From positions 62,868,001 to 62,932,000 of the forward strand of contig CM097888.1 of assembly GCA_044892525.1 (NCBI GenBank): a stretch of DNA of 64,000 nt, written 5' to 3'. Below are positions 5,661 to 54,960 of this stretch, piece by piece; position 1 is the stretch's first letter, and each line of letters begins with the position of its first letter. The notes under the pieces were generated by a model. It was not told where the DNA came from. It saw only the letters and a program-made list of their open reading frames with translations, and ran no database searches. The position numbers and the translations under genes are program-made. The DNA comes from Schmidtea polychroa. Its lineage: Eukaryota.

Positions 5661-5833
5661 TCGAAACTTGTTTATTCTCATTTGATTCTTAATTTACTTT
5701 TAATTTCTAAAATAATATTGTTTTAATATTTGTTCTTTTAAATTAATCAAATTCAAATGATATGATTTCAATATTATTAAATTATTATTAAATTATTTCT
5801 TATTATTTAAAGAATTTGTGTTAATACATATTT

Positions 5834-6784
5834 ATGGAACCCCTTTATCTATTCATTGGTTCTACGCATTATATTGCACATGTATTTATGTTGAATAAAG
5901 ATTTATATTCTGGTGATGTAGAAGGAAATATAATTAAATGGAATTTTGAATCCCGGCGTTCTGAAATCAAATGGAAAGCACATGAAAAATGTATTTTAAG
6001 TATTGACTATTTGCGAAGCAAGAACCATTTAGTAACTCATGGCAGAGATGGGTACTTGAAATTTTGGTTGAAGTCAGAAAATAAATTTGTTGAAATAAAT
6101 CGTATCGAGTCAAATCCTTATAGTTTCTGTCAAATGGCATTATGCCATTCATATAAAAATGGTGAGTTTGTTTCTTTTGATTTAGACGATGACGATCATA
6201 CTATCGAAATAGTGGAATATCCAAAAGACTTAATTACATACAACTTGTGTGTTAAACCACCTAAAAACCTATCTTTAAAATCGTATGGAATGGTTATGTC
6301 TATATCGATATTAGACACAAAAATAATGTTTGTAGGATATGAATCTGGATACGTGATAATGTTCAAAGAATTTCAATATTATTCAGCTATTAAAGTAGCT
6401 GATTGTATAATATGCATGGCAGTTAGCCAAAATCGATTACTAATTATTGGAACACCGAATAACGAATTAATTGTGATAGAAATTGATTGTAATTTTAGTT
6501 CTATGAGTGAAAAAAAGAAAATATTAATAAAAAATCCCGGAATCAGTTCAATAGTATTTAGACAAGATGAGAAAATATTTGCAACGGCTGGTTGGGATGG
6601 ACTAATTAGAGTATTTTCTAGCAAGAGTTTGAAACAGTTAGTCACTCTTAAATGGAATATTGACCATTGTCAAACAGACACAGTTAACCGTCATTTGGCA
6701 ATCGCTTTCACTGATGAAAATTATTTGATATCTGGATCCGATGATAAAATTATTTGTTTTTGGGATGTTTTTCGTAATAAATGA
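5834..6784 (+). CDS. GNB1L: WD40-repeat protein, GNB1L/Asa1-like, single exon, 316 aa
   Basis: Intact ORF with WD repeats (LYSGDVEGNIIKW, LVTHGRDGYLKFW, LISGSDDKIICFWD) and the family-type segment FRQDEKIFATAGWDGLIRVFSSKSLKQLVTLK. Confidence 0.8.
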   Translation: MEPLYLFIGSTHYIAHVFMLNKDLYSGDVEGNIIKWNFESRRSEIKWKAHEKCILSIDYLRSKNHLVTHGRDGYLKFWLKSENKFVEINRIESNPYSFCQMALCHSYKNGEFVSFDLDDDDHTIEIVEYPKDLITYNLCVKPPKNLSLKSYGMVMSISILDTKIMFVGYESGYVIMFKEFQYYSAIKVADCIICMAVSQNRLLIIGTPNNELIVIEIDCNFSSMSEKKKILIKNPGISSIVFRQDEKIFATAGWDGLIRVFSSKSLKQLVTLKWNIDHCQTDTVNRHLAIAFTDENYLISGSDDKIICFWDVFRNK

Positions 6785-11762: not shown

Positions 11763-25223
<13,461 letters not shown>

Positions 25224-27155: not shown

Positions 27156-29679
27156 CACTAGGATGGCCAGAGCGGTCATTTTGACCGTTAAGCAATTTCA
27201 TTTTTATTTTGTGAGAAAACGAAAAGGAATTAACGTCTCATATTTTGTGACAATTATTCATTTTTAGTGAACTTGTTGTGCATATCAAAGCTTCAATTAT
27301 AGCATTTGTCACGACTGAGATAATGAGGCCATCCCCATGGAAGGCCGAACCGGTCAATTTGACCGGTATCTTGAAACACACAAGAAAGTCACACATAATC
27401 ATCTTACATACTAGAAAATATAAAACCAAATATAATTTACACACAACCGAAGCATTTAACAGTCATTTGGGAATGTTTTCCACAGTAAACTTTACTACAT
27501 ACATGGCATATAGCTCCGGATTTGTTATCACAATGAGGAGCAGAACAAGTTTTTCGCTTCTTTAATTTTGGTTGTTCAGAACAGAGTTCACCAGAGATGG
27601 GACTTGCTGTTCGGCGGCTTTTGAACTCCTCACAAAGAGATGTAGCTAATTCAAAAATAAAATCCCTTCTTTTTATAGTTGATCCCGTAGCATCTTTGAA
27701 AATAACATGAGCGTTGAGAGCTGCTTTATCAAGCAAATCATAGAAAGTAGCGAGTGGCCATCTTGCTGTTGCGGCTTTACTGCTGTATAAACGCAACATG
27801 CTATCCATGGTATCTACAGATGTCTTATTTTTGTTATAAAAGTGTATCATTTCAGGCTTTCTCTTTTCGTCAGATCTCACACTAGCAGTAGAATGGAATG
27901 TTGACATGACAATGACTTTCTTGTCCGATTTGCCTTGATAGGAAACAGTGACAGTGTTTTGACACGATAAATAAGTCGATTCAAAAAGAGGCTTTTTCTC
28001 CAAGTGAGCTGATGATAAAAAGCGTGAATTTAATCTTAGTACCAACCAATGTTGTTCGATTTACAAGGAGATGTTCAGCTAGTGAGAGACTTGTAAAGAA
28101 ATTGTCAGTGCAGACATTGTATCCTTTATTGAAAAATGGCTCCATTAGTTTCCTGACTACAAAATCACCCAGCCGTAATCCACAGCGTTCGTTTCTATCG
28201 TGAGCCCCTAAATATGGCATTTGATTGATGACAAATTTGGTTTTGACATCACTGAGAATCCAGTATTTGATACCGAATTTATCAGGCTTATTTGGCATAA
28301 ATTGGATGAAGCAACACTTATTTTTTAGCGTCAAAAGTTGCTCGTCGACAGTAAGGAAGGGATTAGGAGTATAAACTTGAAGACAGTTTGAAACAAACAA
28401 GTCAAATATTTCACGAAAATGGGCATATTTATCTTGTTCTACTCTTTGACGTCGAGAACATTGTTCATCAAAACGAAGAAAGCGCTGTATCTCACGGAAA
28501 CGGTTCCGAGACATGACTTCTCTAAAGTAAGGAGATCCAAATTGAGATGACCAGATTGAATTGATAGAATGTCGGCGAAAGCCTAACACACCACGGAGAT
28601 ACAGCAATCCAAGAAAAGCATCTAATTCCTGTAGACTGATACACCAGTCTGACGAAGCTTCTTTTCCTTTCATAATTGTGTATTTTTGAATTAACTTCAG
28701 CATTCCTTCAGAGACTATCAAGCGCCAAGCGCTCAGGGGTGAGTCAATTTTGCGCTTTGCAAAAGCTTTCACACCAGGTGTTCCACTAAAAATATTGTGC
28801 GCAGGGAATCTGCCAACACTAATAGCGTGATTGTTTTCTACTCGATTCCAAAGAGTGCCATCCCTGCTAGATAAAAGCTGATTTTCTAATGAAGAAATTG
28901 AGCTATTGACTGACTCATTGTCACTTTCTAACGAACTTCCATTATCATCAGAGTTCCATTCATGTAACTCTTCGTCAGAATCATTTCTTTCGGGCTCATC
29001 ATCACTTCCCATAGGCTGATCTTCATCTTCAGAGAGAGCAGCGTCAATATTCCATAGCTTCTGTAAAGCACGTTGAGCAGCAATTCTTTTAGTTGGCATA
29101 TTTGATTCTAAAATAATGATAAAAACTCCGTCAGTAAAATAAGAAACGTCAAATTTATTATTGGATTCTAATGAAAACACGGTTTTATAATGTTTGTTAT
29201 CCCAAGAAGTTCAAAGATTTTCTATAACAATTATTAGATATTGTCTTATGACATTTCGTTAAGTTTTTCGTTTGATTCTTTTAATTTACCAAATTTCAAA
29301 ACTTAGAACTCTTAATGCTTGCTTAATTACACTTTTAATAAGCACTATCTTTGAATAAAAGCAAGAGAATATTTATAAACAAGAAATGAAGTATACATAC
29401 ATACCAGTCTGAATAAACGCGAAGACAATGTTTAAAATAGTGTAGCTTTGTGTCAGCTAAACAAATATTTTTATTTCATTGTTGTAAGTAGTTTAATAAA
29501 TTAACTACTGTTAGAATAAAAATAATTAAATTTTGAAAGCGTGTTAGTAGCACAAAGAAAGTATTGCTAAATGAGTTGCATCATAGAAATCTCAGCATGA
29601 AAATAAGGAGCATATGTGCGACGGTCAAATTGACCGGTTTGGCCTTCCAAGGTATAAAATATTTCCGGCCGTCCTAGTG
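27156..29679 (-). mobile_element. piggyBac copy B, full length (2524 bp)
   Basis: TTAA TSDs at 27152-27155 and 29680-29683; 13-bp TIR CACTAGGA(T/C)GGCC; internal palindromes ccggtcaatttgaccgg. Confidence 0.98.
27437..29099 (-). pseudogene. piggyBac transposase (about 554 aa) with a single apparent 2-bp deletion near 28040
   Basis: Catalytic D residues in TVDEQL, CTDNFF and SVDTMD; C-terminal CRD CSAPHC..CHVCSKVYCGKH..CFGC; frame switches at LVGT/LRLNSR. Confidence 0.93.
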
Positions 29680-38935: not shown

Positions 38936-39715
38936 TTAATACAATAATGAAATTCACATCGAATAACATTTTATTCACATTAAAAGTTATTTTAAAAGTT
39001 ATTTAAACAAACTTTATTTCTGAAATATATAAGTAATTTATTCATAAATAAATTAAATATAATGTATTGCACAGGCACTACATTAGCCCCCGCCCAAGTA
39101 CGGGGAGCGTATGCTGTTGCTGCTGCTGAGTAGTGTGTATATATACCCAACCAACACAACCCTCCCAACAAAAACATACCTCCATTACGCTTAAACCATT
39201 AGAAAAACAACCTAAAACCTATGTTTTTATAGTATTTTAACCCCATATTTTAAACAACAACCACCCTTAATCTTTAAAGCCTCAAACTCAAAAGCTTCAA
39301 ACTAAAAAGAGAATAGAAAAGAAAATGGCATTATGAAAAAGTTAGAGGGCTATTTGGGATAGGGCTATATACACACTACTTTTGATCGCAATCAAACTCC
39401 GGAGTTGATCTTTATCAGATTATTGATTTTAAATTATATAAATTAAAAAATAAATGAAAAATAGTAAAACTGCTCTGAGGGGACAGTGGTATTTTTTTTT
39501 GTTTTTTCACTGTCCCCTCAACAGTTTTTTTGATCCGGATCATTTTTTTATTTATCAACCTCTTTCGTTTATCAAATCTCTTCCAATAGCAGCACACCTT
39601 ATTATTCGCTTCTCGCTCGAATACGATTTCATCGGCGTTTTAAGCGTGCTGCTCGAAAGTACAAATGAATTCGAAAGTGAATTCGAAAGAGGTCCGAAAA
39701 CAACTGAGAAATAAA

Positions 39716-39788
39716 TGTGCACATTATGGAATCGATCCGGGGGTGTTCGAAAGACAGGTGGCGATAATTACCGGTTCGCCACCATCAC
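39716..39788 (-). ncRNA. tRNA-like Pol III cassette T4' (left-TIR mirror of T4)
   Basis: TGGCGAACCGG A-box-like motif, GGATCGATTCC B-box-like motif 43 nt downstream, GTG/CAC+A ends. Confidence 0.5.
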
Positions 39789-39952
39789 CCGTTTCAATAA
39801 TTTTTTTTTCATATTTATGTTTAAAAAATAAAATAAAATAAAATAAATAAAATAAAATAAAAATAAATAAAATATACAACTACTTTATAAATCTAAGATA
39901 CCCAAACTATTATTTTCAAATTTTTAATATTATTTTATGTTGAAAAAAAAAC

Positions 39953-40025
39953 AAACCACAGTTAAGATTTGAACCGCTATCCATTTGAACCACTGTGCCG
40001 GTCTAGCCCACTGCACTATCTGGTT
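39953..40025 (-). ncRNA. tRNA-like Pol III cassette T3' (left-TIR mirror of T3)
   Basis: TAGTGCAGTGG A box, GGTTCAAATCT B box, followed by a T run. Confidence 0.55.
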
Positions 40026-40123
40026 TTGGATTTTTGTCATTTTTTAGACTGTCACATTATGAAAATAAATATAAAAACATAAAAAATCAAAACAGGATAT
40101 CCAATAAAAAATTTTTTCTAAAA

Positions 40124-43100
40124 ATGAATTGTAATATTTGTAATAAAGTTTTTAAAAATAAAACTGGATTAATTTCTCACTTAAAATCGAAAGCTCATTT
40201 ATTAAAAGAAAACAATCTTAATGATACAAATTCAAAAGTTTGTCCTAAATGTAAAGGAAGATTTCTACATTCTGGATATAATAAACATTTTGAAAATTGT
40301 ATCGGGAAAAATAGAGAAATATTTACATGTCCTCATTGTAACTTTTCAACAAAAGTAAATTTCTATTATTTAGAACATATAAAAGAATGTAAAAATAAAA
40401 AACAAAATTCTGACGATGAGGAATGTCATTCAGAAGGAGAACCTGATTATGTTGAAAGAGAAAAATATAACTGGGATGATTTTAATCATGTAGATGAATT
40501 TCAATTAAAAATTAATGGACCTGCAACTCCTGGAGAATATATAAATAAAAATAAAAAAAATATTAAAAATTCTTTCACTGAAGCTTTAAAAAATTATAAA
40601 CCGACAAGGTATAATGTTATAAAATATAAAATTATAATCAAAGCAAAATACTGGCGAGGAGCAGAAGAAAAGACAACACCTTTAGATGTTGAAATTGGAA
40701 TACCCTTTAAATATTTATTTTCAACTAAAGGATTTGATAAAACCATCAAAGAAATAATTCAAGCAGTAGAAGCAAAACAAGAAGAGGTTGAAAATGAATT
40801 AGGAGATTCAAACTTAGTATTCAACTCTTTCCAAACTTTAGTGATTGATTATTGGAGAGGATTACCACCTAATCCTAAATCTTATATTCCTACACCCTTT
40901 AAATCTAAAAATGTTATAAACATACAGAATAATGATAACAAATGTTTCGTCTGGTCAATACTTGCACATTTACACCCTCAAGAATCAAACCCTCAAAGAG
41001 TTTCAAAATACAAACAATATGAAAATGAATTAATATTTCCCAAAGGATTCAAACATCCAATGAAACTAGAAGACATTCCAAAATTTGAAAGTTTAAATAA
41101 TCTTAAAATTAATATTTATGAACGTGTTAAAGGGAAACATGTTAATAGCAGAGAAATTATTCCAATTTATATTTCAGATTATGAAGTTAGAGATAACGAA
41201 CCCCAGGATAACACTAGGGAGATATATCTTTTAATCTTGGAACAACAAAATAATCAACATTATGTTTTAATAAAAAACTTTCAAGCTTTTACATCACCAG
41301 AGAATCCAACTAGTGGAGGAGGAACATGTAAAAGATGTCTTCATTATTCAACAACTAAAAACTCTATGATTAAACATACAAGATTTTGTGAAAAAGATGA
41401 TCCAGCTTTAATTAAAATGCCTAATAATCCCAAGATGTATTTTAAAAACTTTTCAAATTTACTACAAACAGTAGGAGTGCTTTATGGGGACTTTGAATCT
41501 ATAAATCGTAAACAAGATTTGGTTAAACAATATTTAAAAATAATAGAAAAAAATAAACTCATGGATTCCTGGAACTCCTCAGGAGAGAAGATGAAACCAG
41601 AGAGGATGAAAGCCTTTCTAAGAAAAAGGAATAAACCTAATAGTGTTAAAAAAACTAAACAATTACCATCTGCTTATAAATTATTATTTAAAAGTAATTA
41701 TCCTGAACTCATAGAATCTAGAGAATATACATTTCGAGGAATTTCAGAAACAGAAGTCTTGAATCATTTTACTAAAAGTATAAATGATCTAGAACATGAA
41801 ATATTTAAAGTATTAAAAACAAACTATCCTCAAAATATTTCTAATCAACAACAACAAGAATATGAAAACACTTCCAACTGTTGGATGTGTAAACAACCAT
41901 TTGAAGAGTCTCCGAATATAAAATTCCTCGATCATGATCATTTAAAAAAGGAAAATAATTATCGAGGAGCAGCTCATAAAAATTGTAATCTTAATTGTCA
42001 TACTCCTAAATTTGTACCTGTTATATTTCATAATCTTTTTGGTTATGACATACATCTATTTATTAAACATTTAGCAGCAAATGCTAAAAACTCTTTCAAA
42101 GTTATAGGACTTACAAAGGAAAAATATAAATCAGTTGAATATGGAAAATTAAAATTTATAGACTCGTTAAACTTTCTCCAAATGTCTCTAGATGGAATAG
42201 CTAAAACAATGAAACCAGAAGATTTTAAAATCACTCGAGAATTCTTGGAAAAAAATAATATTCCTCTAGAAGAATATTCTACATGCTTAGCAAAAGGAAT
42301 ATATCCTTATGACTATGTTGACTCGTTTGAAAGATATAATGAAACAAGTCTTCCTAGCCAAGAAGATTTCTCTTCACAACTTCAAAAATATCATATTACA
42401 AATCAAGAATATTCTCGAGCAAATAAAATTTGGGAATTATTCAAGTGTAAAACTTTAGGAGAATATACAAGTATGTATTTATCCTTGGATGTTTATATTC
42501 TAGCAGATTGCTTTGAAGAATTTACAAAATCTTTTGTTCTTAAACCTTACAATTATATAACAGCACCCTCTTTAGCTTGGGATACTTTATTATATACCAT
42601 TTGGACTTCAAATATAGAAGAAGCTGATAAAATTATAGATCTTTTAACTAACCTCGATATGTTTAATCTAATTAAAACAAACATTAGAGGAGGAGTCTCT
42701 TCAGTAATGGGGAATAGAGAAATAAAAGCTAGAAATGCAATAACTACTAGCAGAATGCTTTCAAAGACCTCTGATCCATATATAAAAATTAACAATGAGG
42801 AATTAAAAGAAATATTAGAAACAATGAAAAATCCTATATTTATACTTTATATAGATGCAACAGCTTTATATTCAGGAATTATGACTCAATATTTACCAAT
42901 GGGTGATTTCATTGAAATAGAATCATCAAAAGAACTTATAAAAGAAATACTTTCAACACCTAAAGATTCTCCAATAGGTTACTTTGTAGAATGTGACTTA
43001 TTATATCCAGATGATATAAAATCAGGAACAAGATATTTCCCATTAGCTCCTGTAAGAAGAAAGATTGATATCAACGAACTTTCTGAATGGCAAATCTCAC

Positions 43101-44350
43101 AAGATAAACCCCCAACAATGAAACTTCTTTGTGATCAAACAGATCGAAGGTTTTATCTTTGTCACTATAGACTCCTCCAATTTTATCTTTCACGAGGTAT
43201 GATATTAAAAAAAGTTCATAGTGTTATAAGATTTAAACAGAGGCCATTCATGAAAGCTTTTATCGAGGAGAACATTAGATGTCGAAACATTGCAAAAAGA
43301 GAAGGTAACCTTTTTAAAGATAATAATTATAAACTTTTAAACAATTCAGTCTTTGGGAAGACAATGGAGAATGTTGATAAATATACTCATATTGAACTCC
43401 TAACTAAGCCTACATTTAAAAACGCACAAGTATTTTCTGAAAGTCTTACTGCAATAGAACTGAAGAGTTTTGAGAAAACATACAACAAACCAATATTTAT
43501 AGGGTTTTCAATTTTAGAACTTTCAAAATTACAAATGTATGAAACATATTATAACATCTTACAACCTATATATGGTTCTAATATATTAATGCATGCAATG
43601 GATACAGATTCAAATCCTATACTTTCAAATTTAATAAATTCAACTGGAGAATTATTTTCATTTAAAGATGAAAAACCTTTTACTCCTATAGAAAATGGAA
43701 TATTTATTCGTGCTAAACAATATTCATACGAAACATTTAAAAACCCTGAATTTATAACCCGAGAAATTATATTTAAAACCACAGAAAAAGAGGAAATTAT
43801 TTCATTTAAATATCCTATATTCCCTAAAGGACCAGAGGGACAAGAAGAAAAACCTGTAAAGGATAACAGATGTAAAGGAATACAGAAATCCGTTGCAAAG
43901 AATCTTTCTCATCAAGATTATATAGATACATTGAATCCAAATCATAAAGATAAAATTGATGAAATACACCAACTTAAAAGTGAAAACCATGATATTTACT
44001 TGATAGAATCTCAAAAAGTATCATTATCAAATTATGATGATAAGAGATTCATCCTAAGTGATTTAAAGACAACTCTTCCTATAGGAAATAATTTAATACC
44101 GATAATAAAAAATCTAGAAAAGTTGAATAAGTTATATGATACAAAAATTACTGATCTTGATATTTATAATGTTGAAATTATTTATCCCGAGAGAGAAATC
44201 GAGAAGCCTTTATATTCTCAAGTTTTTAATCCTATATGTTTAGAACTTAAATATTTTAATACTGATCCTGAATATATAAAAGGTCTAAGTGATAAAGAAT
44301 TTAAAGATCATAAATTAATGATTCAAAGGTTGGCTTTCAACAATATTTAA
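40124..44350 (+). CDS. polB: Protein-primed family B DNA polymerase with N-terminal Zn fingers (about 1408 aa from ATG 40124)
   Basis: YGDFES (ExoI), DHDH..YRGAAHKNCNL, FHNLFGYD (ExoII), KGIYPYDY, YIDATALYS (A), KLLNNSVFGK (B), DTDS (C), CKGI, DDKRF. Confidence 0.97.
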   Translation: MNCNICNKVFKNKTGLISHLKSKAHLLKENNLNDTNSKVCPKCKGRFLHSGYNKHFENCIGKNREIFTCPHCNFSTKVNFYYLEHIKECKNKKQNSDDEECHSEGEPDYVEREKYNWDDFNHVDEFQLKINGPATPGEYINKNKKNIKNSFTEALKNYKPTRYNVIKYKIIIKAKYWRGAEEKTTPLDVEIGIPFKYLFSTKGFDKTIKEIIQAVEAKQEEVENELGDSNLVFNSFQTLVIDYWRGLPPNPKSYIPTPFKSKNVINIQNNDNKCFVWSILAHLHPQESNPQRVSKYKQYENELIFPKGFKHPMKLEDIPKFESLNNLKINIYERVKGKHVNSREIIPIYISDYEVRDNEPQDNTREIYLLILEQQNNQHYVLIKNFQAFTSPENPTSGGGTCKRCLHYSTTKNSMIKHTRFCEKDDPALIKMPNNPKMYFKNFSNLLQTVGVLYGDFESINRKQDLVKQYLKIIEKNKLMDSWNSSGEKMKPERMKAFLRKRNKPNSVKKTKQLPSAYKLLFKSNYPELIESREYTFRGISETEVLNHFTKSINDLEHEIFKVLKTNYPQNISNQQQQEYENTSNCWMCKQPFEESPNIKFLDHDHLKKENNYRGAAHKNCNLNCHTPKFVPVIFHNLFGYDIHLFIKHLAANAKNSFKVIGLTKEKYKSVEYGKLKFIDSLNFLQMSLDGIAKTMKPEDFKITREFLEKNNIPLEEYSTCLAKGIYPYDYVDSFERYNETSLPSQEDFSSQLQKYHITNQEYSRANKIWELFKCKTLGEYTSMYLSLDVYILADCFEEFTKSFVLKPYNYITAPSLAWDTLLYTIWTSNIEEADKIIDLLTNLDMFNLIKTNIRGGVSSVMGNREIKARNAITTSRMLSKTSDPYIKINNEELKEILETMKNPIFILYIDATALYSGIMTQYLPMGDFIEIESSKELIKEILSTPKDSPIGYFVECDLLYPDDIKSGTRYFPLAPVRRKIDINELSEWQISQDKPPTMKLLCDQTDRRFYLCHYRLLQFYLSRGMILKKVHSVIRFKQRPFMKAFIEENIRCRNIAKREGNLFKDNNYKLLNNSVFGKTMENVDKYTHIELLTKPTFKNAQVFSESLTAIELKSFEKTYNKPIFIGFSILELSKLQMYETYYNILQPIYGSNILMHAMDTDSNPILSNLINSTGELFSFKDEKPFTPIENGIFIRAKQYSYETFKNPEFITREIIFKTTEKEEIISFKYPIFPKGPEGQEEKPVKDNRCKGIQKSVAKNLSHQDYIDTLNPNHKDKIDEIHQLKSENHDIYLIESQKVSLSNYDDKRFILSDLKTTLPIGNNLIPIIKNLEKLNKLYDTKITDLDIYNVEIIYPEREIEKPLYSQVFNPICLELKYFNTDPEYIKGLSDKEFKDHKLMIQRLAFNNI

Positions 44351-44428
44351 TTTTTTAATAATAAAATGTCGACAATTAATTTAAGCAACTATAGCAACCT
44401 GATCTACTTTTTTAAAAATACACCCATT

Positions 44429-45025
44429 TTATAAATAAGAATTCTTTAACCATTTCTCCCGTTTAATTTTTTTAGAATATTCATTAGTTATAACATTAGT
44501 ACTTTTTAATCTATTAATATTATTTTTAATATCTTGTATTATTTGATTTGATTTCATTATTTCATCATCAGTTAAGATTCCATCTTCCAAAGCTTTTAAT
44601 TGAAATAAAAATAATTTAGAGATTCCTAATTCTATTGATAAACAAACTTCACGATATAAACTTTTCTTTTTAGAAGTATAAGATAGTGAAACTATTTCAG
44701 TTAGGAAACCATCAGCTACTGAAATACTTCCAAGTATTACAGGTGCAATTGTTAAAACTGGTAAAGTTATAGGTAAAATAACTGTTAATATTGCAGATGC
44801 AAATCCTAAAGAATAACCTATAACTTTTAAAACTGTATTCCCTTTATTCCATCTATTTTTAATTTTTTTATAATGCTTTAATAAATCTTGTAAATGTAAG
44901 GTTTCTGATTTAAATTCTTTTACTCTCATAATTTCAAGTTCTGTGGGAGCTGAAGGTCCCGAAGGTTTGGGGGAATAATATCTTGATGACAATTCTGGGT
45001 AAATTTTTTCTTTTACTTCTTCCAT
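44429..45025 (-). CDS. Polinton membrane-associated protein with YPEL and PSAP motifs, 198 aa
   Basis: Intact ORF; N-terminal IYPEL and PSAP; hydrophobic stretch VIGYSLGFASAILTVILPITLPVLTIAPVILG; flanking helical regions. Confidence 0.8.
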   Translation of the reverse strand: MEEVKEKIYPELSSRYYSPKPSGPSAPTELEIMRVKEFKSETLHLQDLLKHYKKIKNRWNKGNTVLKVIGYSLGFASAILTVILPITLPVLTIAPVILGSISVADGFLTEIVSLSYTSKKKSLYREVCLSIELGISKLFLFQLKALEDGILTDDEIMKSNQIIQDIKNNINRLKSTNVITNEYSKKIKREKWLKNSYL

Positions 45026-45033
45026 TTTAATAA

Positions 45034-46011
45034 TTAAAAAAATAAGATTTTATTATCTGGTACCAATACTCGGATATCATAAGAGACTCTTGTTGAGAGA
45101 ATGTCTTTATACAATTCCATCAATGCTTTACGAACTTCATCAACATCAACCTTTTTTTCATAAAATATTAAATCTATATATTGTACAAGTGTGCTTTTAA
45201 AAATAATATTCTTACTTTTAACTTTATGTAGTCCATGTGAATGAGTATTAACATACCAATCTCAGTGTGGTAAATCATAACTAGTCATTATAACATCACC
45301 CTTTTCAAGCTTACTATTATAATCACATTTCACAAACCATTTCATTCTTTCACCATCATCATCAAATAAAAAGAAATAAGGATCAATAATCTTTACAACC
45401 ATAAAAACACTCCATTCTTTACTATTTGTTGTTATTAAAGTTGGTTCTATAAAATGTTTATATGTATGGGGTAATAATGTTTTATTCTGTTCTAATTCAG
45501 CAGCTCTTTTTCTAATACTATGTGTGGTGTTAATGTGTGTTCCATGAGACTCTAAATTTGAAATTCTTTTATTAAATGATGTAATCATCTCATTTATTAT
45601 TTTATATATTGTATTAAATTTAGTATTCATAATTTGTTTATCTTTAGAATTTAATATGCTAGTATTTAACTTTACAACTTGTTCAGTTAACAGACTTTGT
45701 AACTTGTCAAATTTATCATTAAATCGTTGTTCGATATTATTAAGCTTTGATTCCATTGAATCCATTTTTGTTGTTAATGAACTTTCAATTCTTGTTGTTG
45801 TTAAATCAGTATAATTTTTATTAGCAGCATCACCTTCATCAATTGGTAAAGATAAATCTTTTATCTTGTGTCCATTTAAATTTAAATCTCCTTTCATTGA
45901 ATCACCTCTTTCATTAATATATTTATTTTCTGTTAAAGTTAATATTTCTTCTGTATTAAACCCTGTTTTTATTGTTCCACCACCTCTATTACAAGGAATA
46001 TAAGAACTCAT
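45034..46011 (-). CDS. Fibre-like protein (249 aa to TGA 45262-45264; frame stays open 75 more codons to TAA 45034-45036)
   Basis: GDSMKGDLNLNGHKIKDLSLPIDEGDAANKNYTD (phage fibre-type repeat) followed by heptad coiled coil; extension checked codon by codon. Confidence 0.65.
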
Positions 46012-46035
46012 TTATTAATAATTTAAAATGAATCT

Positions 46036-46806
46036 TCAAACCTGTTTCAGATGTAAATACATTGAAATCTCTTCTCCATTAAAATCAATCAATTCTCCTT
46101 CTTGGTTAAGAATTTTAAAATTAATATCCATTATATATTTTCTACATAAAGGCAAATAATTTGGAGGATTCATTCTTTCAACTATTTTATATCCCATAGG
46201 AACTGTGTTTGAGGGAAAGGAATATAAAACATTTGTTTGTTTACCATTATTATAAGAACCTGTTATACAATCGCAATGAATATTTATTGTGTTTGTATTT
46301 ATTATTTTTATAATATTTTCTGATGTTATATTCTCAACTATAGGTGTGATATAATGGTTTCGTGTAAATCCTAAAATTGTTCTAAAGAAACTATTATTTT
46401 GAAAATGAATTCCTATATTCTCTAAAGTCATTATACATTTTGAAGTTGGTAAATCCATTTTAATTTTAATGGCTCCATTTGTTTTTTTAGAAAGTATATT
46501 ATTTAAATCTTTTATCTCATAAGCTCCAGGTTCGATTGTTATTATAATCTTATCTGTAGATTTTGGGCTTATATAATAAAATATGTTATTATCTTTAGTT
46601 ATATTAAAAATAGTATTATAAGCACAAAACCATAATAGACCTAATTCATAATTTAAATCTTGATCTAATTTTATTGAATCTTGAAAGTTTATAGTAAAGT
46701 CTGATTCTTTTGAATTTATAGATAAAGTTCTTGAATATTTATCTGACATTATGTTTACCATTTTTTTAAAATTATCTTCCAGAAGGTTGCGAAACTCCAT
46801 TTTCAT
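46036..46806 (-). CDS. Minor capsid protein (penton, single jelly roll)
   Basis: YELGLLWF..YNTIFNI...NN.FYY, IEPGAYEIKDLN, INIHCDCITGSY.NG...VLYSF, YLPL...I...I.NQEG..IDFNGE pattern typical of Polinton pentons. Confidence 0.9.
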   Translation of the reverse strand: MKMEFRNLLEDNFKKMVNIMSDKYSRTLSINSKESDFTINFQDSIKLDQDLNYELGLLWFCAYNTIFNITKDNNIFYYISPKSTDKIIITIEPGAYEIKDLNNILSKKTNGAIKIKMDLPTSKCIMTLENIGIHFQNNSFFRTILGFTRNHYITPIVENITSENIIKIINTNTINIHCDCITGSYNNGKQTNVLYSFPSNTVPMGYKIVERMNPPNYLPLCRKYIMDINFKILNQEGELIDFNGEEISMYLHLKQV

Positions 46807-47296
46807 AATAGAGATTTTAAATCATTATAAATTTCTTGGATTAAGGAAGTGAAACCTTCTCCTTTGGACAGAGTCCCTTGAGATTTATTCAATCTATACA
46901 AAACATATAAGCTTAAAATACCACATATTTTAGTATTATTAGGTTGAACTTGTAAAGAATTAAAAGTATAGTCTCTCTTCGAGCTTACTCCGGACAGATA
47001 GTCTTCAACTTCTTTAGTGGGTTTAATCCCAAAGAATCAAAGTATATAGATTTATTATATATACAAACCCAATGAGATCCTTTTTCATTTGAATTTTGAT
47101 AATTTATAATAATATTCAGGGGACTTCGTTTCTTTTGAGTGTCTTCTTTCAGAATATCTTTCAGACTTGATAATTCATCATTCATTAATATTTTTATTTT
47201 TAAATTTAAATAATTTGCATAATCTTTTAAATCAAAATTTGTTTTTGCATTTATTCCAAATGTTTTTAAAAAATCTAATATTGAAGGACTAGTCAT
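46803..47296 (-). pseudogene. Adenain-type maturation cysteine protease with a 1-bp frameshift near 47030
   Basis: GSHWVC and YFDS in ORF 46985-47296; the shifted frame continues GIKPTKEVEDYL...QVQPNNTKICG to a TGA at 46803-46805 that overlaps the penton ATG. Confidence 0.92.
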
Positions 47297-48145
47297 TTTA
47301 TATATTTATTAAATTTATCTTTTGAAATTATTCCATGTTTTAATAATTCTTTAGAAATCTTTAAAATATCAGAATCTAAATTATTATGACCTGCTTTTTT
47401 AGCTGCTAATAGTTTTCTTAATTCAATAAAAAGGTTGATTGGGTTTGGTTTAACCCTTATACCATCACCTTCTTTAACAACATAACTCTTTTCATTTCTA
47501 TCTAAATATTTCTTTAAATCTTGAATGTGTTTTGCTTTTGAACTAGCTTTTATTGATCTTATAAAATTTAAATATTTTTTAATTTCTTCAACATCATCTG
47601 AAGGATATCCACAAAGTAATCTATAAAAATCATCTGTAAATTCAAAGTCTAAATATTCATTATTATAAACATTTTGTGAATGAATATGTGATTTATTTTC
47701 TGGAGTTGTATATAAAGTAAAGTTTTGTTTATTGATTGTTATTATTGAATATCCTTCAGAATTAATATGAAATGTGGGTTTAATTGAATCACTTAAACCT
47801 TCTCTAATTTTAGGATTAACTTTAAGAGGTTTTGTTTTTAAAAACATTTCTTCTTCTTCCACATTAGAGGTTCTTCTACGTTTTCTTTGATTTCTTTCAG
47901 AATGACTTTCAGGATGATTTTCAGTGGATTCTTTCTCCCACTCCAATTCTTTTATTTTTTGTTTTTTATCTTTTTTTTGCTTGCTCATTTAATCCTTTTA
48001 TAGCTTTAATTGTTGGTCCTTGTTGTTTTTGGATTAGCTCATTTAATATTATAGATTCAGCATGTTGAGTTGTATCTTTTTTATTATACTTGTTTTGTTC
48101 TGATTGTAATTTTTTTAAAAGTGCTAATCTTTCTTCATATACCAT
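47293..48145 (-). pseudogene. Conserved Polinton structural-module protein (PZ-type; label tentative) with a frameshift in an A8 run at 47971-47978
   Basis: A 59-codon ORF from ATG 48145 (MVYEERLALL...QQGPTIKAIKGL) joins ORF 47293-47988 if one A is removed; C-terminal LRKLLAAKKAGHNN..I..ELLKHGII motif. Confidence 0.65.
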
Positions 48146-48167
48146 TTTAATGGTATCAAAAATGGTA

Positions 48168-48701
48168 TCATGGTTCCTTCCAAGGTTTTACATATAATCC
48201 TTTACCATTTTTAGTTTTACAAAGGCATCCATTCTTTAAAGATTTATACATTTTTTTTAAATCATCTTTATCTTTTGAAGATAAAGATTCAGATGTTGAA
48301 ATTTGATTTTTTAAAAAATCATTTAAACCTCTGCCTTTATATGGATCAAGATAGAGACCTTTTCCTTTAGCTTGCCCTACCTTCATTTTCTCGATTTCAG
48401 TTTGTAGTTTTTCTTTTTCTAGGTCTGTCTTTTGAGATTCTTTAGCTTTTTGAACTGTAGTTGCAATTCCTCCAGCTATTCCAGCAGCACCTGATAAACC
48501 AGCAATGATTGCAGGTATTAAAGCAGCTAATGGAAGAATGCCGCCTTCTTTAGTAGAAGAGCCCTTCAGCTTCGCTCTAACTTGTTCTTTTACATGTTTT
48601 CCAATAAAATATTTCTTACCGTCAATTACTACTGATTTATTTTTATTTGATTTTATTAATTCTTGCAAAGATTCTTCAGTAGAGGAACTCTTCGAGGTCA
48701 T
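48168..48701 (-). CDS. Adenovirus pX/mu-like core or membrane-active protein, 177 aa
   Basis: EGGILPLAALIPAIIAGLSGAAGIAGGIA resembles the adenovirus pX C-terminus GGILPLLIPLIAAAIGAVPGIA; repeated G[KR]GL motifs. Confidence 0.8.
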   Translation of the reverse strand: MTSKSSSTEESLQELIKSNKNKSVVIDGKKYFIGKHVKEQVRAKLKGSSTKEGGILPLAALIPAIIAGLSGAAGIAGGIATTVQKAKESQKTDLEKEKLQTEIEKMKVGQAKGKGLYLDPYKGRGLNDFLKNQISTSESLSSKDKDDLKKMYKSLKNGCLCKTKNGKGLYVKPWKEP

Positions 48702-48716
48702 TTTATAATAAATAAA

Positions 48717-49526
48717 ATGGATGTACGAAGTCCAATAATTTGGAAACCAATTTTAAATAGACATAAATCTAAATTTAATAATAAAGTATTTCCTGATAAT
48801 TTTAGATTATTAATTGTTGGATCTTCTGGATGTGGAAAGAATGTACTTGTTTTGAAAATGTTACTTGAAGATGGTTTTTTAGATTATAATAATTTAATCT
48901 TTTACTCTACAACTATAAATCAACCAGAATTACAACTTTTGAAATGTGGATTTGAAAATAAATTAACTAAAAAAGCAATAATTGATATTTTTAAAAATCA
49001 ACATAGATGTCCTGAAGAAGTTTTTCAACCTTGTGATATGGTTGATTGGTATAAGGAAAAGATTTTAGAATCAGATATTAGTAATAAAAATGATTATATT
49101 TGTGAAGATCAGGGGCAGGAGGCAATTCAAGTTTTATTCTCTAATAAACCTGAAGATGTTTTACATTGTGATTTACTTCCTAAAGATAAAAAGATTCTAG
49201 TTATATTTGATGATGTTGTTAATATGAAAAATCAAGAGATTCAAAAGAGTTACTTTACAAGAGGAAGACATAATAATTGTAATGTTATTTATATATCTCA
49301 AACTTATTATGCTTTAGATAAAAACTCTATAAGAAATAATTCTAATTGTTTTATATTTTTTAAATTAGATCGCCGTGATAAGAATATGATTTATAATGAT
49401 TTATTTTCAAATGTTGAACCTGATAAGAATATGTTTGATATGTTTGTTGATAATCATTGGAGAGAAAAATATAATTATATTTATTTGGATAGAGAAGAAG
49501 CTGAAATATGGAAAAGTTTATTTTAG
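48717..49526 (+). CDS. A32/FtsK-HerA-type packaging ATPase
   Basis: Walker A GSSGCGKN (N instead of T/S), Walker B LVIFDD, RGRHNNCNVIYISQ and IRNN motifs. Confidence 0.93.
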   Translation: MDVRSPIIWKPILNRHKSKFNNKVFPDNFRLLIVGSSGCGKNVLVLKMLLEDGFLDYNNLIFYSTTINQPELQLLKCGFENKLTKKAIIDIFKNQHRCPEEVFQPCDMVDWYKEKILESDISNKNDYICEDQGQEAIQVLFSNKPEDVLHCDLLPKDKKILVIFDDVVNMKNQEIQKSYFTRGRHNNCNVIYISQTYYALDKNSIRNNSNCFIFFKLDRRDKNMIYNDLFSNVEPDKNMFDMFVDNHWREKYNYIYLDREEAEIWKSLF

Positions 49527-49537
49527 AGCTTGTCGAC

Positions 49538-50919
49538 TTAGAAATCTGTTTTCTGTAGTTCATTATTATAAAATCTATCTAATATTTTTTCATTATTTAA
49601 ATCAATGATGCTATATGTTATTGGAGTTGTATAATTTATTTTATTTATAATAAAAATTTCATTTGTCCATTTTGCTGTGAATCCTTTTTCAAATTTATTT
49701 TTATATTTAAATATTCTTACTCGGTCACCAATTTTAAACTTTGGTTTTTCATTTACCACTTTAACATTTATAAGTTTAATGCTTTCAGGATTCAAGGAAG
49801 CATTTAAAGGTGTTGATTTTATAGAACTATGTACATCATTATTATATTCATTTACAATCTTTTGTAACAATTCATTGTTCCATTTTTGTTTTCCAATAGC
49901 CGTAAAATATTTCCACATTTTATTTTTTAATGTTCTATTTAATCTTTCAACCACAACTGCTTTTCCTTCGTTTTCTGTTGAATATAATTTAATATCATTT
50001 TCATTTAAAAACTTTGTAAAAACTTTGTTATAAAATTCTGTTCCTTTATCACACCATAAATATTTTGGAATTCTTTGATATTGTTCAAATATATTTTCAA
50101 ATGCTTCTGTAATAGAATATCCTGTTTTATTTTCTAAACATCTTGCAAAGGCAAATCTTGTATATAAATCTATTACAGTTAAAATTATTTTATATTTTTC
50201 AGGGTCTGATGATTTGGTTGGCATAAAGACTAAATCTGCAGACCATGTTTGATCTTTTTCATGTACTTGAACTTTTAAATATTTTTTATTTTTTCTAAAT
50301 TCATGGTGTAATTCGTTGGCATATTTTATTTGTGATTCTGTTGGGGTTAATAAACTAGTCTTGGATATATTCTTGAGGGATCTTTCAGCATCTGCTTGTT
50401 CAATAATCTTTTTATTAGCAACATCTTTTGCCATCCTTGGTAAACTAGCACCTATGAAAATCTTACCTTTCATTGCTAATTTAACTAGAGCTCTTTGAAT
50501 CTTTCCTTGGGTTGATGGATTTTGGATATTATTTAAATCATGTATTAAATTCACATCTGCAACATGTCTATCTCTAAGATCTTCTGAATTGTATGCAATA
50601 TCATGTTTTAAAGCTGCTTGATCAATTCTATTTATTGGTTCTTCTCCTTGTTTGGGATTATTATTTTCATCTAATCTAATATCTAATCTTGTTCCTGGCC
50701 AGTATAATTGTGTTTAAATAAATGTCTTTCACCTGGATATTTTTCTGTAGTAAAAGGTTTTAATATTGAAGATGTCACTTTTGAAGATTGTAGGTCGCCT
50801 CCGGCTCGTGGAATCATGTCGCCTCCTATATGTTTTTTAGTTTTTAGATGACTTGCTTTATGATGTCTTGTAACTTGACAATTGCAACTTTCAAATCTCC
50901 AATATTTATTTAGAGACAT
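49538..50919 (-). pseudogene. PLA2-integrase fusion (about 460 aa) with a 1-bp frameshift near 50699
   Basis: HNYTG|PGTRLD..PINRIDQAALKHDIAY..RHVAD runs without a stop into ELHHEFRK..WSADL..WCDKGTEF..VVERLNRTLK and KFKIGDRVRI..FEKG..WT.EIF..ELQK. Confidence 0.88.
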
Positions 50920-50948
50920 TTTAAAATGTTAAAATATCAGGGATTATA

Positions 50949-52235
50949 TCAAGAATCTCCCCTAACATTTTCAATAATTGAAATCTTTCCACCATATAAT
51001 TTCATTTCTATTTTCTTTTCTTCTAATATTAATGTATATACTTTAGCTTTGAAATTAGAATCCTTTGTTATATGAAGTGTAACATCAACTTTATTTATGG
51101 CTAGGCGATCATCTTGGTCTGAAACATTTATACAAAATATAGAATATAAATTTTTGAAATCTTCTAAACTTAATTGCGGTTCAACTTTGAAATCATAACA
51201 TGTTTCAATATAATTTAGATATGGGAATATGTTTTCATTATTTTCAATATTAAATTCCATTCTATTTATTGGATAATAAGAACTATTTAATTGAATTTGG
51301 ATTGTTTTTAAATTATCAACTCCAATCTTTTGAATAAACAAGTTGTTATTTTTTTGGAAAGATGAATCTACTTCTTTGAATCCAATCAAGATATATCTTG
51401 GTCGGTATGCTAAATTTGCTACCTTTATAGAATATGTTGAACCCTCTGTCATACTAAATTCACTACAGATTCTATTTAAATAATTTACATTTATAGACTT
51501 GTTGGAATTTAATCTTTCAAGGAGTTTGATTTCAGAATGTGGATTTAATGTCCATTCAGGTATATGCAATTCAAGTGTTGATATTTTTAATTTAGCTGTT
51601 GTATCCTTATCTCCATAGAACAATCTTTTATCACCTTCTACTCTATTACAAACTAATTCTATAAAAACATTATGAAGTATACGATTATAGTTTTGAAGGA
51701 ATCCAAACAAGTGTTTTAATTCAAAATAACCTTCAAATTTTTTAGATTTATAAAGTTCAACTCTTTTATAGTAACCATAATTTATATCTAAACCATCTTT
51801 ATCTAAATCTCCTTTATTAACATCAGGAATCCAGCCTGTTAATTCACCATATTCATTTTTATAATCACAACCAGTCAAAATAAAATTTAACATTGTAGAA
51901 TATACTCCCGGATGCAAAACAGTTTCAATTTCTGATGATCCTAGTTTTAATCTCATGTTGGAGAATAAATTTGGAAAGAAATTATTTTCTAGGGTTATAT
52001 CTTTGTTTGCTTCAATTTCTAATTCGATTTTATAATATAATTTGGCATTACAAATATCTATAGGGTTTGATGTTTGAAGAGATTGAAAAACTATATCACC
52101 CCTACGATTTAAGTTTGCAATAGATCCTGAAGTTGGGGAGATTTTAAGTACATCGTTTTTCTTGATTTCATGAGTAAATTCTTTATTATAATCAAGATTT
52201 AATTTATTTTTTTCTTGAATTTTTATAATATTCAT
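50949..52235 (-). CDS. Major capsid protein (double jelly roll), 428 aa
   Basis: LENNFFPNLFSNMRLKLGSSEIE, ELKHLFGF, PRYILIGF, IQIQLNSSYYP, FKNLYSIFCINVS pattern of Polinton MCPs; intact. Confidence 0.9.
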   Translation of the reverse strand: MNIIKIQEKNKLNLDYNKEFTHEIKKNDVLKISPTSGSIANLNRRGDIVFQSLQTSNPIDICNAKLYYKIELEIEANKDITLENNFFPNLFSNMRLKLGSSEIETVLHPGVYSTMLNFILTGCDYKNEYGELTGWIPDVNKGDLDKDGLDINYGYYKRVELYKSKKFEGYFELKHLFGFLQNYNRILHNVFIELVCNRVEGDKRLFYGDKDTTAKLKISTLELHIPEWTLNPHSEIKLLERLNSNKSINVNYLNRICSEFSMTEGSTYSIKVANLAYRPRYILIGFKEVDSSFQKNNNLFIQKIGVDNLKTIQIQLNSSYYPINRMEFNIENNENIFPYLNYIETCYDFKVEPQLSLEDFKNLYSIFCINVSDQDDRLAINKVDVTLHITKDSNFKAKVYTLILEEKKIEMKLYGGKISIIENVRGDS

Positions 52236-52291
52236 TTTTATATATTAAAATTTACACACACAAAATAGGATTAATTAAATATATTATGTAA

Positions 52292-52365
52292 GACATTATA
52301 GCATAGTGGGAATAGGCTTCAATTTTATCACCGGGAGTACCGGGTTCAATTTTCGATTTTGGTCA
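52292..52365 (+). ncRNA. tRNA-like Pol III cassette T1
   Basis: A box TAGCATAGTGG at 52299, degenerate B box GGTTCAATTTT at 52343, GAC/GTC+A ends, T7 after. Confidence 0.55.
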
Positions 52366-52534
52366 ATTTTTTTCGATATTTTTTTTCAACGGAATCTGAT
52401 TCAGCGTACTGATTTTAGTATATATTTAAATTTTCAGATGGATCTGAGTGGTAGTTGTCGAGAAAATGAATAATTAATTATTAATTTCATCAATAAATAG
52501 TCACACATTAACAACTTATTTTATATTGAGTATA

Positions 52535-52607
52535 GCTCTAATAGCTTAGTGGTAATAGCACTCGACTGCATTGCCAATACCAATGGGTTCAAATCCCATT
52601 TCGGTCA
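52535..52607 (+). ncRNA. tRNA-like Pol III cassette T2 (tRNA-Cys-like layout, unpaired anticodon stem)
   Basis: A box TAGCTTAGTGG at 52542, B box GGTTCAAATCC at 52586, perfect T arm ATGGG-TTCAAAT-CCCAT, 73 nt, T8 terminator at 52608-52615. Confidence 0.75.
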
Positions 52608-52778
52608 TTTTTTTTCAAATATTTTTTTAACGAAATATTGATCAGCATACTCGATTTAGTACTTGTACAAATTTTTAAGGAGATTGGTCAACGGCAACTC
52701 TTGGAAATTTAAGATCAAAAACGTTTTAACTTAAGCTACCAAAAATTAATATATCCAATAAAAAAAATATTTATAAAA

Positions 52779-52973
52779 ATGGATGAGTTAAAAGAAAGAA
52801 TGAGAAATGAATTGAATGAAGTTAAACATAAGAGAATGAAAAGAAGAGAAGAAGAACCATTAGAATACATCAAAGAGTTGATGGTAGATAATGAAAAGTA
52901 TCGACATTTTTATATGAAGGCTGTAGATGTTGCTGATATAAGATTGAAGAAAATGAAACAATTACAGGAATGA
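52779..52973 (+). CDS. Small charged helical Polinton protein, 64 aa, unknown function
   Basis: TAAAAATG start; upstream motif shared with polB; stop lies at the inner TIR edge. Confidence 0.6.
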   Translation: MDELKERMRNELNEVKHKRMKRREEEPLEYIKELMVDNEKYRHFYMKAVDVADIRLKKMKQLQE

Positions 52974-52984
52974 CAAAAATCCAA

Positions 52985-53057
52985 ACCTAGATAGCGCAGT
53001 GGGCTAGACCGGCACCGTGGTTCAAATGGATAGCGGTTCAAATCCTAACTGTGGTTA
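52985..53057 (+). ncRNA. tRNA-like Pol III cassette T3 (in right TIR)
   Basis: A box TAGCGCAGTGG at 52992, B box GGTTCAAATCC at 53035, (A)ACC/GGT(T) ends, T8 after. Confidence 0.7.
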
Positions 53058-53202
53058 GTTTTTTTTCAACATAAAATAATATTAAAAATTTGAAAATAAT
53101 AGTGTGGGTATCTTAGATTTATAAAGTAGTTGTATATTTTATTTTATTTTATTAATTATTTTATTTTTAAACATAAATATGAAAAAAAAATTATTGAAAC
53201 GG

Positions 53203-53275
53203 GTGATGGTGGCGAACCGGTAATTATCGCCACCTGTCTTTCGAACACCCCCGGATCGATTCTTTAATGTGCACA
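53203..53275 (+). ncRNA. tRNA-like Pol III cassette T4 (in right TIR)
   Basis: TGGCGAACCGG at 53210, GGATCGATTCT at 53253, 8-bp hairpin GGTGGCGA/TCGCCACC, GTG/CAC+A ends, weak TTTATTT tail. Confidence 0.5.
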
Positions 53276-53997
53276 TTTATTTCTCAGTTGTTTTCGGACC
53301 TCTTTCGGATTCACTTTCGAATTCATTTGTACTTTCGAGCAGCACGCTTAAAACGCCGATGAAATCGTATTCGAGCGAGAAGCGAATAATAAGGTGTGCT
53401 GCTATTGGAAGAGATTTGATAAACGAAAGAGGTTGATAAATAAAAAAATGATCCGGATCAAAAAAACTGTTGAGGGGACAGTGAAAAAACAAAAAAAAAT
53501 ACCACTGTCCCCTCAGAGCAGTTTTACTATTTTTCATTTATTTTTTAATTTATATAATTTAAAATCAATAATCTGATAAAGATCAAATAGCCCTCTAACT
53601 TTTTCATAATGCCATTTTCTTTTCTATTCTCTTTTTAGTTTGAAGCTTTTGAGTTTGAGGCTTTAAAGATTAAGGGTGGTTGTTGTTTAAAATATGGGGT
53701 TAAAATACTATAAAAGTATAGGTTTTATGTTGTTTTTCTAATGGTTTAAGCATAATGGAGGTATGTTTTTGTTGGGAGGGTTGTGATGGTTGGGTATATA
53801 TACACACTACTCTGCTGCTGGTACTGGTGTTGATGGTTCTGGTGCTGATGATGTGGTTGGTGCTGTTCTGTTGGTGTTGTTTCTGTTGGTGCTTGTGCTG
53901 AAGATGGTGCGGATGCTTGAAGAAGGCGCGTGTCGAGCAGTCAGGCATACGCTGGTTGCTGATGTTGCTGTGTGTGCAGTTGGTGATGGTGCTGAAG

Positions 53998-54960
53998 AAA
54001 TATTTGATTCCGACCTTGAAATTTTAAATTTAGCTTGTTAATATGATCCGCAATGTCTGTTAGAAATGTTAGTCTTGAAATAAAAACAGGATTTTCAAAA
54101 TGATTTAATAATTCTACTTTGAATTTCATTCTGAGAAAATGTTCATGCATATGATTCCAGAATCGTGACAAAACCTTTCCTTTACTCAGCCAACAAAAAT
54201 CTGCCTGCATAACTAAAGCGCCGTAGTTACTGCTACTTGAATTGGTGGCCTTCCACAAGCCAAGCAGACCAATATCCTTTTCTAACATGACTGGGGCACC
54301 ATCCGTAGTAAGAAATATAAGCTTATTGATGTTGATGTCACTTTTAAATAGACATTACTTGAGTTCTTTGTATTTATCTTCACCTCTTGTTGTATTTTTC
54401 ATGGGTAATTGTGCTTATTATTCAAATAATAAGTTAATCTGTGTCAGAAATATCGCATAACTCATCTGTTGCAATAATGAAACTAGGTGCATTTTTTAAA
54501 TCAAACAATATTTGTTCAAGTATAATACTATGAAATAACTGAAGACCTGATATCAGTTTCTTGATTTCATTTTTATTCTTAAACTTAGCAAATAGGGAAT
54601 AATTACATTCTTGAAACCACGATTTTATTGTTTCGCCATCTGAATACCGTTTCTGTTTTTTTGCTAACGTCCACTTTATATTTATCGAAGCTTCTGTAAC
54701 ACGATGACTTACATTTAAATGAAACTGAAAAAGATTTAGTTGGCCTTGAAGATTCATTTTTATAGAAAAAACTTTAACTTGTCTGTCTTTCGTACCAACT
54801 TTGAAGTTTTAGTTAAAGTCACTATACATTATCGTGTATTATCTTTGTAGATTTGACTTTTTTAGAACAGAACAGTATCCAAGCATAGCAAACACACTGA
54901 TTTACCACCTGTCGCTGTGAGCGAAAAATGAAGTTCCAATGACAAAAAAAACTATCATAA
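53998..54960 (-). mobile_element. Degenerate hAT (GTF2IRD2-like) transposase remnant
   Basis: WLSKGKVLSRF, LTFLTDIADHINKLNLKFQG, SDGETIK and IIATDELCDISD fragments in broken frames. Confidence 0.85.

Follow-up and report, generated by a model that had tools for sequence, protein, structure and literature searches.

A full-length, coding-defective Polinton in Schmidtea polychroa and its family of about 2,000 young copies with modular polymerases and ends

A 64,000-nt stretch of the Schmidtea polychroa genome (GenBank assembly GCA_044892525.1, contig CM097888.1, positions 62,868,001 to 62,932,000, forward strand; hereafter the window, in whose coordinates positions are given) contains a 14.7-kb element that an initial annotation described as a complete Polinton with a full virion module and intact ends. 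It was read as a fairly recent endogenous polintovirus whose family may still have active members, to be checked by searching the genome for other copies and by building polymerase and capsid trees. The locus therefore raises the question of whether this copy is itself viable and what kind of family stands behind it. We consider it probable, mechanism included, that the element is a full-length, coding-defective and likely recombinant Polinton/Maverick insertion, one of about 2,000 young copies.

The element spans 14,683 bp from AGTAGT at 39129 to ACTACT at 53811, with CTGCTG on either flank as a 6-bp target-site duplication (TSD; 39123–39128 and 53812–53817), which bears out the exact termini and TSD first reported. 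Its target is a CTG-rich (CTG)n stretch, and the TSD of this copy taken alone is weak. Perfect 6-bp TSDs are found in 16 of 20 sibling copies picked by paired ends and in 14 of the 17 further siblings with both ends located (28 examined); an empty-site paralogue was looked for and none was found. Terminal inverted repeats (TIRs) with a repeated end motif, together with the 6-bp TSD, are features of Polintons. The five substitutions that had been noted in the outer 230 bp are real, every one within the first 96 bp, but the TIRs are not about 230 bp long: they measure 913 bp on the left (39129–40041, plus strand; a type A1 end beginning AGTAGT) and 843 bp on the right (52969–53811, minus strand), with 16 substitutions and 5 gaps between the arms. 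A 51-bp segment (39354–39404), containing short duplications and a hairpin and resembling repair filler, is present in the left TIR and absent from the right arm. Because 15 of 20 siblings have this segment in both arms and other end types possess equivalents, we rejected a one-off scar of a nested insertion.

Between the ends lie 11 gene slots. Pfam cut-offs are exceeded by the major capsid protein (MCP; 50949–52235, minus strand, frame open), which matches the double jelly-roll family PF21738 at 94 bits, by the A32/FtsK-type packaging ATPase (48717–49526, plus strand, 269 aa, open; PF04665, 33 bits), by the integrase (PF00665, rve, 48 bits) and by PLA2 (PF08398). The penton (46036–46806, minus strand, open) gave a model with a predicted local distance difference test score of 95.6, whose fold matches the single jelly-roll mavirus penton (E 4.8e-11). 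For the adenain/Ulp1-type maturation protease (46803–47296, minus strand), a sibling-based profile matches S273R of African swine fever virus (E 2.7e-4) and adenain (E 0.049), and a model of an unbroken sibling protease matches that of adenovirus (E 1.8e-4). Sequence searches of the PDB with the penton and with the protease piece returned no match. In the protein-primed polymerase (pPolB; 40124–44350, plus strand, 1408 aa, N-terminal C2H2 finger, open) we located exonuclease and polymerase motifs, and 502 homologues were found at E≤1e-20; the window pPolB itself has no PF03175 match, and homologues of 36–45% identity pass the cut-off of that family. With an rve integrase, an A32/FtsK ATPase, an adenain/Ulp1 protease, double jelly-roll (DJR) major and single jelly-roll (SJR) penton proteins, pPolB, TIRs and a TSD, the element is a Polinton.

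The virion genes named in the initial annotation thus stand for MCP, penton, ATPase, protease and PLA2, and less so for two others. The pX-like core protein (48168–48701, minus strand, 177 aa, open) has a weak match to PF05829 (E 0.043, below cut-off). For the coiled-coil gene (45034–46011, minus strand), possibly fibre-like, and the 198-aa protein with a hydrophobic stretch (44429–45025, minus strand, open), Pfam and Atlas yielded no more than leads; the fibre assignment is unproven. PLA2, previously counted as its own gene, is the N-terminal part of the integrase frame (49538–50919, minus strand). This fusion is lineage-wide, since a single PLA2-integrase open reading frame (ORF) of at least 440 aa is present in 23 of 40 siblings and PF08398 and PF00665 occur together in 96 of the 120 homologues listed. 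A Pfam scan found no PF00385 chromodomain in the integrase.

The description as a complete Polinton is right about which genes are present, but wrong about coding capacity. Judged against sibling lengths, 6 of the 11 frames have their full length, and pPolB, though among the six, is internally deleted. The fibre-like gene has a premature stop at 45262–45264 (unbroken siblings encode 317–336 aa). The protease (46985–47296 and 46803–47036), an orphan gene of about 290 aa (47293–48145, minus strand; 280–313 aa in unbroken siblings) and the PLA2-integrase gene (frame shift near 50700) are each split over two frames, and a small ORF (52779–52973, plus strand) encodes 64 aa compared with about 89 aa in most siblings. 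Within its polymerase domain, pPolB lacks 14 aa beyond residue 1094 and a further 16 beyond residue 1163, the latter directly behind the catalytic DTDS motif. Both deletions are private, the residues being kept in 17 of 17 other long frames that span the region, and both gaps also show against the three closest homologues; multi-codon deletions of this kind are unlikely to be assembly errors. By the definition of an intact Maverick given in PMC8097293, all core ORFs uninterrupted, this copy is not intact. It is an ordinary dead insertion whose value lies in pointing to its family.

The genome search revealed about 2,000 close copies, a scale that the initial annotation had missed. We counted exact matches to one 24-nt word each from MCP and integrase, taking the words that were best conserved in our sample; of 48 sampled elements, 42 have the MCP word and 44 the integrase word. 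In the 781-Mb assembly the MCP word occurs 1,960 times and the integrase word 2,014 times, compared with 0 for controls. Exact ends number 1,438 for type A and 1,306 for type B, again with 0 for controls, and the type B ends are mostly paired 13–16 kb apart among the 100 matches listed. The 98 MCP matches that were scored (3,228 first-look candidates) are 98–100% identical. Our cautious estimate is a family of about 2,200 copies. If most of them are near full length, the family would occupy about 30 Mb, or about 4% of the assembly; some copies are truncated or segmental duplicates.

We sampled 40 copies, of which 20 were chosen by paired ends of the window type and 20 were every fifth of the first 100 listed matches to an internal word, all on contig C1. 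Frame breaks fall at different positions in different copies, and one copy has all 11 frames at full length. Terminal tree branches have medians of 0.003–0.005, and sibling TIRs differ by 0.5–5.1% (20 copies). Pairwise ratios of nonsynonymous to synonymous substitution against the window copy are 0.15–0.26 for MCP, 0.09–0.16 for ATPase, 0.31–0.37 for integrase and 0.53–0.56 for penton; MCP and ATPase are under purifying selection. The initial annotation had taken shared lesions and a lack of intact relatives as the mark of a dead family. Such a family is not indicated here, because lesions differ between copies, selection is purifying and one of the 40 copies is fully open. Searching viral contigs for relatives with flanks outside this genome yielded none, and metagenomes gave six short integrase fragments, none with ends. 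The element is covered by contigs from three presumed-RNA runs and from a fourth of unknown kind, which cannot show transcription.

The TIRs of the window copy are a poor clock because 8 of their 16 differences segregate in the family, both bases being common among 56 sibling TIRs. We rejected dating by raw TIR divergence (1.9%), as the private or nearly private sites number only about 8 out of 843. The idea of a recent endogenous polintovirus is supported by the short end branches of about 0.005, the low divergence of sibling TIRs and purifying selection, but not by TIR-based dating, and this particular copy is defective. The same 8 sites suggest a mosaic: each arm appears to derive from a sub-lineage of its own, despite the intact TSD. 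The nearest neighbours of the window copy also change along the element.

The family also has a modular structure of polymerases and ends that had likewise gone unnoticed. Three pPolB clades, 62–68% identical in aa to that of the window copy, and about six unrelated end types occur on one nearly shared capsid/ATPase/integrase backbone. Among the 20 copies of the second sample, six have another pPolB (72–74% nt and 63% aa identity), and all six bear the unrelated end type B; their MCP, ATPase and integrase are 94–98% identical to those of the window copy. The B-type pPolB lies about 0.54 substitutions per site from the A-type, and B copies intermix with A2 copies in the MCP tree. MCP-anchored loci (86–99% aa) added end types C, D, E/G and F, and those tested carry the third pPolB clade.

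Several side observations concern these modules. The six B-polymerase copies (L124, L125, L128, L129, L133 and L140) hold a remnant of about 0.5 kb of the 3′ end of an A-type pPolB downstream of their own polymerase, an apparent swap junction, and their polymerase-side TIR is short (about 330 bp) and without the mirrored RNA polymerase III (Pol III) unit described below. Sub-lineages C–F (L185–L197) have two extra ORFs between pPolB and the 198-aa gene, one of 141–191 aa that is helix-turn-helix-like (HTH-like) and one of about 95 aa, and their TIR hardly extends beyond the end cassette. Three mini-elements of 232, 192 and 186 bp (L178, L179 and L182, on contigs C1 and C2) consist of a left Polinton end joined to a right one, are each flanked by a 6-bp TSD and fit mobilisation in trans; L182 is inserted in the penton gene of another copy. 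Near 2.66–2.68 Mb on C1 (L102/L122), a distant pPolB (29–35% aa) of another Polinton-type family lies beside a deleted B-ended copy.

A feature common to the otherwise unrelated ends is an inverted copy of the first 15–28 bp, placed 197–316 bp inward, which all the unrelated end types that we examined possess (A, B, C, D, E, F and G variants). In the left end of the window copy the first 15 nt recur exactly at 39366–39380 (23 of 30 positions match), inside the 51-bp segment, so that terminus and internal copy together form a terminal cassette at 39129–39380; the right TIR has no internal inverted terminus. For 10 of the 11 end variants, the internal copy and its own terminus agree at 17–18 of the 18 positions beyond the common AGTAGT, compared with 3–12 of 18 for unrelated end types. 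It is present in 36/46 A1, 10/12 B, 3/3 A3, 1/2 A1c and 0/9 A2 ends, and as none of the nine sampled A2 ends carries one, it is dispensable; one A2 end fetched separately does have it. The left end of the window copy is predicted to fold back as single-stranded DNA (z −4.0). In addition, the outer ends of L106/L126 and L118 read like the A1 internal copy instead of the usual terminus, which suggests conversion between end and internal copy, and three exact termini stand in tandem with a 128-bp period at one element end (G000:C1:240401881-240402161).

Following what is established for Polintons and adenovirus (PMC11161782 and PMC8097293), we propose that competent members would replicate as free linear DNA through terminal-protein-primed strand displacement that starts at the AGTAGT origins. 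Jelly-roll capsids would package this DNA, and the integrase would insert it and duplicate 6 bp of target. Free molecules that replicate together may recombine and trade polymerase and origin as one unit; mosaics such as the window copy, with its two unlike TIRs, would result. The lesions of this copy likely arose after insertion, after which it would be mobile only with help in trans, as would other dead copies and the mini-elements. A displaced single strand likely folds back over about 250 nt via the internal inverted terminus, so that a duplex origin would be rebuilt and copied from the terminus and the internal copy would be refreshed from it; such fold-back would explain why the internal copy tracks each end type. 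Extending this proposal, each end would be a self-contained double-origin cassette of 200–320 bp in which local origin rebuilding replaces a 14-kb panhandle, and cassette plus cognate polymerase would make up an exchangeable replicon sweeping a still-active, recombining swarm on one capsid-integrase chassis. We offer this extension tentatively and regard it as unlikely.

Several observations count against the proposed history. Only one of the 40 sampled copies is fully open, and nothing in this analysis shows present-day transposition, free DNA or particles. The single-base frameshifts could partly be assembly errors. The window's own A1 internal copy matches its terminus at 14 of 18 positions, below the other end variants. 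None of 78 cassettes in the fetched loci lies at the centre of a long palindrome, so fold-back priming has left no direct footprint in the sample, where one messy inverted duplication is the sole fold-back-like structure. One B-ended copy with a perfect TSD has an A-type polymerase, so matching of origin and polymerase is not strict, and the mosaics could also have been made by gene conversion between integrated copies.

The last point belongs to a different history, a recently extinct burst, in which a transposon amplified within cells and is now dead or nearly so, the mosaics having formed by gene conversion or ectopic recombination of integrated copies. This would account for the at least one broken or short frame in 39 of 40 sampled copies and for the unlike ends without a TSD in 3 of 17, with some 2,000 near-identical copies providing ample substrate for conversion. 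We nevertheless find it doubtful, given purifying selection on MCP and ATPase, end branches of about 0.5% and the combination of asymmetric TIRs with a perfect TSD (the window copy and one more of 20), which a simple two-locus crossover would not produce. A separate matter is whether the internal inverted terminus has any function. It might instead be a recurrent scar of template switching or repair, kept terminus-like by occasional conversion, and this is a serious possibility toward which we lean slightly less than toward its contrary: the copy is missing from 9 of 9 sampled A2 ends, 10 of 46 A1 ends and the right arm of the window copy, and the A1 version sits in the filler-like segment with its duplications and hairpin, but the same layout at 197–316 bp recurs in all unrelated end types examined, each time matching its own terminus. 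That the window copy is itself an intact, potentially autonomous polintovirus is highly improbable; its ends, TSD, gene slots and open pPolB, MCP, penton and ATPase frames invite that reading, but PLA2-integrase, protease, fibre-like and orphan genes are interrupted and the polymerase domain bears two private deletions. We thus retain a defective, likely recombinant member of a young family as the probable explanation.

The element also carries putative Pol III units. Scanning the 64-kb window for an A box, a B box and a T run gave 4 matches, all within the element, and 0 in 500 simulated controls. Three units lie between MCP and the right end, namely U1 (52299–52373, plus strand), U2 (52542–52615, plus strand) and U3 (52992–53066, plus strand) at the inner edge of the right TIR; a tRNA-like mirror of U3 (39943–40018, minus strand) lies ahead of pPolB and faces away from it, so that all four point outward. 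Rfam tRNA matches U2 only (52535–52607; 32.4 bits against a cut-off of 29, with many broken pairs), ARAGORN found 0 tRNA genes, and among the units only U2 folds better than shuffles. By comparison, a 371-nt stretch of the TIR (53190–53560, plus strand; mirrored at 39431–39801, minus strand, coordinates from TIR pairing) folds far better than shuffles (z −6.5, 0/100 shuffles) and is a candidate structured RNA.

U1 and U2 lie in a segment (52247–52742, plus strand) that is 91–96% identical to part of the intergenic spacer of the host ribosomal DNA (rDNA). One rDNA unit (L200/L201, G000:C1:2500-21900) has a spacer with U1 and three tandem U2 repeats of 243-bp period. We infer that U1 and U2 were captured from the spacer into the element, and not the reverse, because sub-lineages C–G are without this segment. 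The U2 word (2,923 matches) was rejected as a measure of copy number, since U1 and U2 are also tandem in the rDNA spacer (one rDNA locus checked); outside the rDNA array, 20 of 20 sampled U2 matches are in a Polinton context. Several sub-lineages lack Pol III units, and the notion that the units stand in for a mini-TBP gene is not supported, as the unit-less sub-lineages sampled carry the HTH-like and about 95-aa ORFs, not TBP. Adenovirus virus-associated (VA) RNAs and the tRNA-like RNAs of murine herpesvirus 68 (MHV68) are virus-borne units with Pol III A and B boxes and T-run terminators. U1–U3 resemble them in these predicted signals and differ in that U1 and U2 match a host rDNA spacer, folding better than shuffles is confined to U2 and several sub-lineages do without units.

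The surroundings contain other mobile-element remnants. The Polinton lies in a low-complexity stretch beside one hAT-type remnant; its right flank is low-complexity and then hAT-like. We take 1404–1898, 16098–17660 and 53941–54808 to be hAT-type transposase remnants, 8462–9678 and 27437–29210 to be two near-identical piggyBac-like transposase remnants, and 2978–3442 to be a Gypsy-like reverse transcriptase/RNase H fragment. An intronless 319-aa frame at 5825–6784 is presumably WD40-like, and exons at 21903–22753 presumably cathepsin-like.

Among known systems, the element is like the Polintons/Mavericks (Polintoviricetes) in its pPolB, RVE integrase, Ulp1/adenain protease, packaging ATPase and DJR major and SJR minor capsid proteins, as well as in its TIRs, 6-bp TSD and short repeated end motif, here at 14.7 kb (PMC11161782 and PMC8097293). 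The former source defines a terminal protein and a vOTU domain at the pPolB N-terminus for Polintons. Its PLA2-bearing virion module, and the PF03175 matches of its closest pPolB homologues, resemble the Alpha (Mayetiola-class) adintoviruses (Starrett et al. 2021, PMC8502044). As that source describes them, those viruses have a separate PLA2X with a C-terminal pX-like domain and an integrase chromodomain, whereas here PLA2 is in frame with the integrase, no chromodomain was found and the window pPolB lacks a PF03175 match. Because the PLA2X and chromodomain features are absent, we place the element there only with reservation, although it works alike.

Polymerase exchange on a conserved morphogenetic backbone has parallels. 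Jeong et al. 2023 (PMC10748475) describe polymerase swaps in nematode pPolB1/pPolB2 Polintons, with TIRs highly conserved across polymerase classes, and a preprint (bioRxiv 10.64898/2026.10.13.758929) describes mosaic Polisuviricotina in which replication modules re-associate with morphogenic modules. Unlike in the nematode elements, a different polymerase here mostly comes with a different end sequence, and the three polymerases, at 62–68% aa identity, are closely related and not separate families. In copy number, the family far exceeds the vertebrate Mavericks, for which PMC8097293 reports at most 287 per genome, the median being 8. Animals with thousands of copies have been described before: PMC11131425 lists 1,676–1,724 polintovirus regions and 2,686–2,802 MCP genes in two coral genomes. 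The load here is extreme but not unique, and the coral figures cover all polintoviruses, whereas the roughly 2,000 copies counted here carry exact 24-nt words of a single capsid lineage. Literature searches of incomplete coverage found no description of Polinton Pol III units, a PLA2-integrase fusion or internal inverted termini.

The family bears on how animal Polintons replicate, whether they form particles and how they exchange polymerases; according to PMC8097293, no Maverick particles have been observed so far. A genome holding some 2,000 young copies that belong to a single capsid lineage offers statistical power for such questions. With several polymerase and end types, mini-derivatives and an end structure that tracks the terminus, origin-polymerase coupling, fold-back replication and ongoing activity become testable by observation alone. 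If the double-origin cassette and the exchangeable replicon are real, the family would be a natural record of Polinton replication and replicase swapping.

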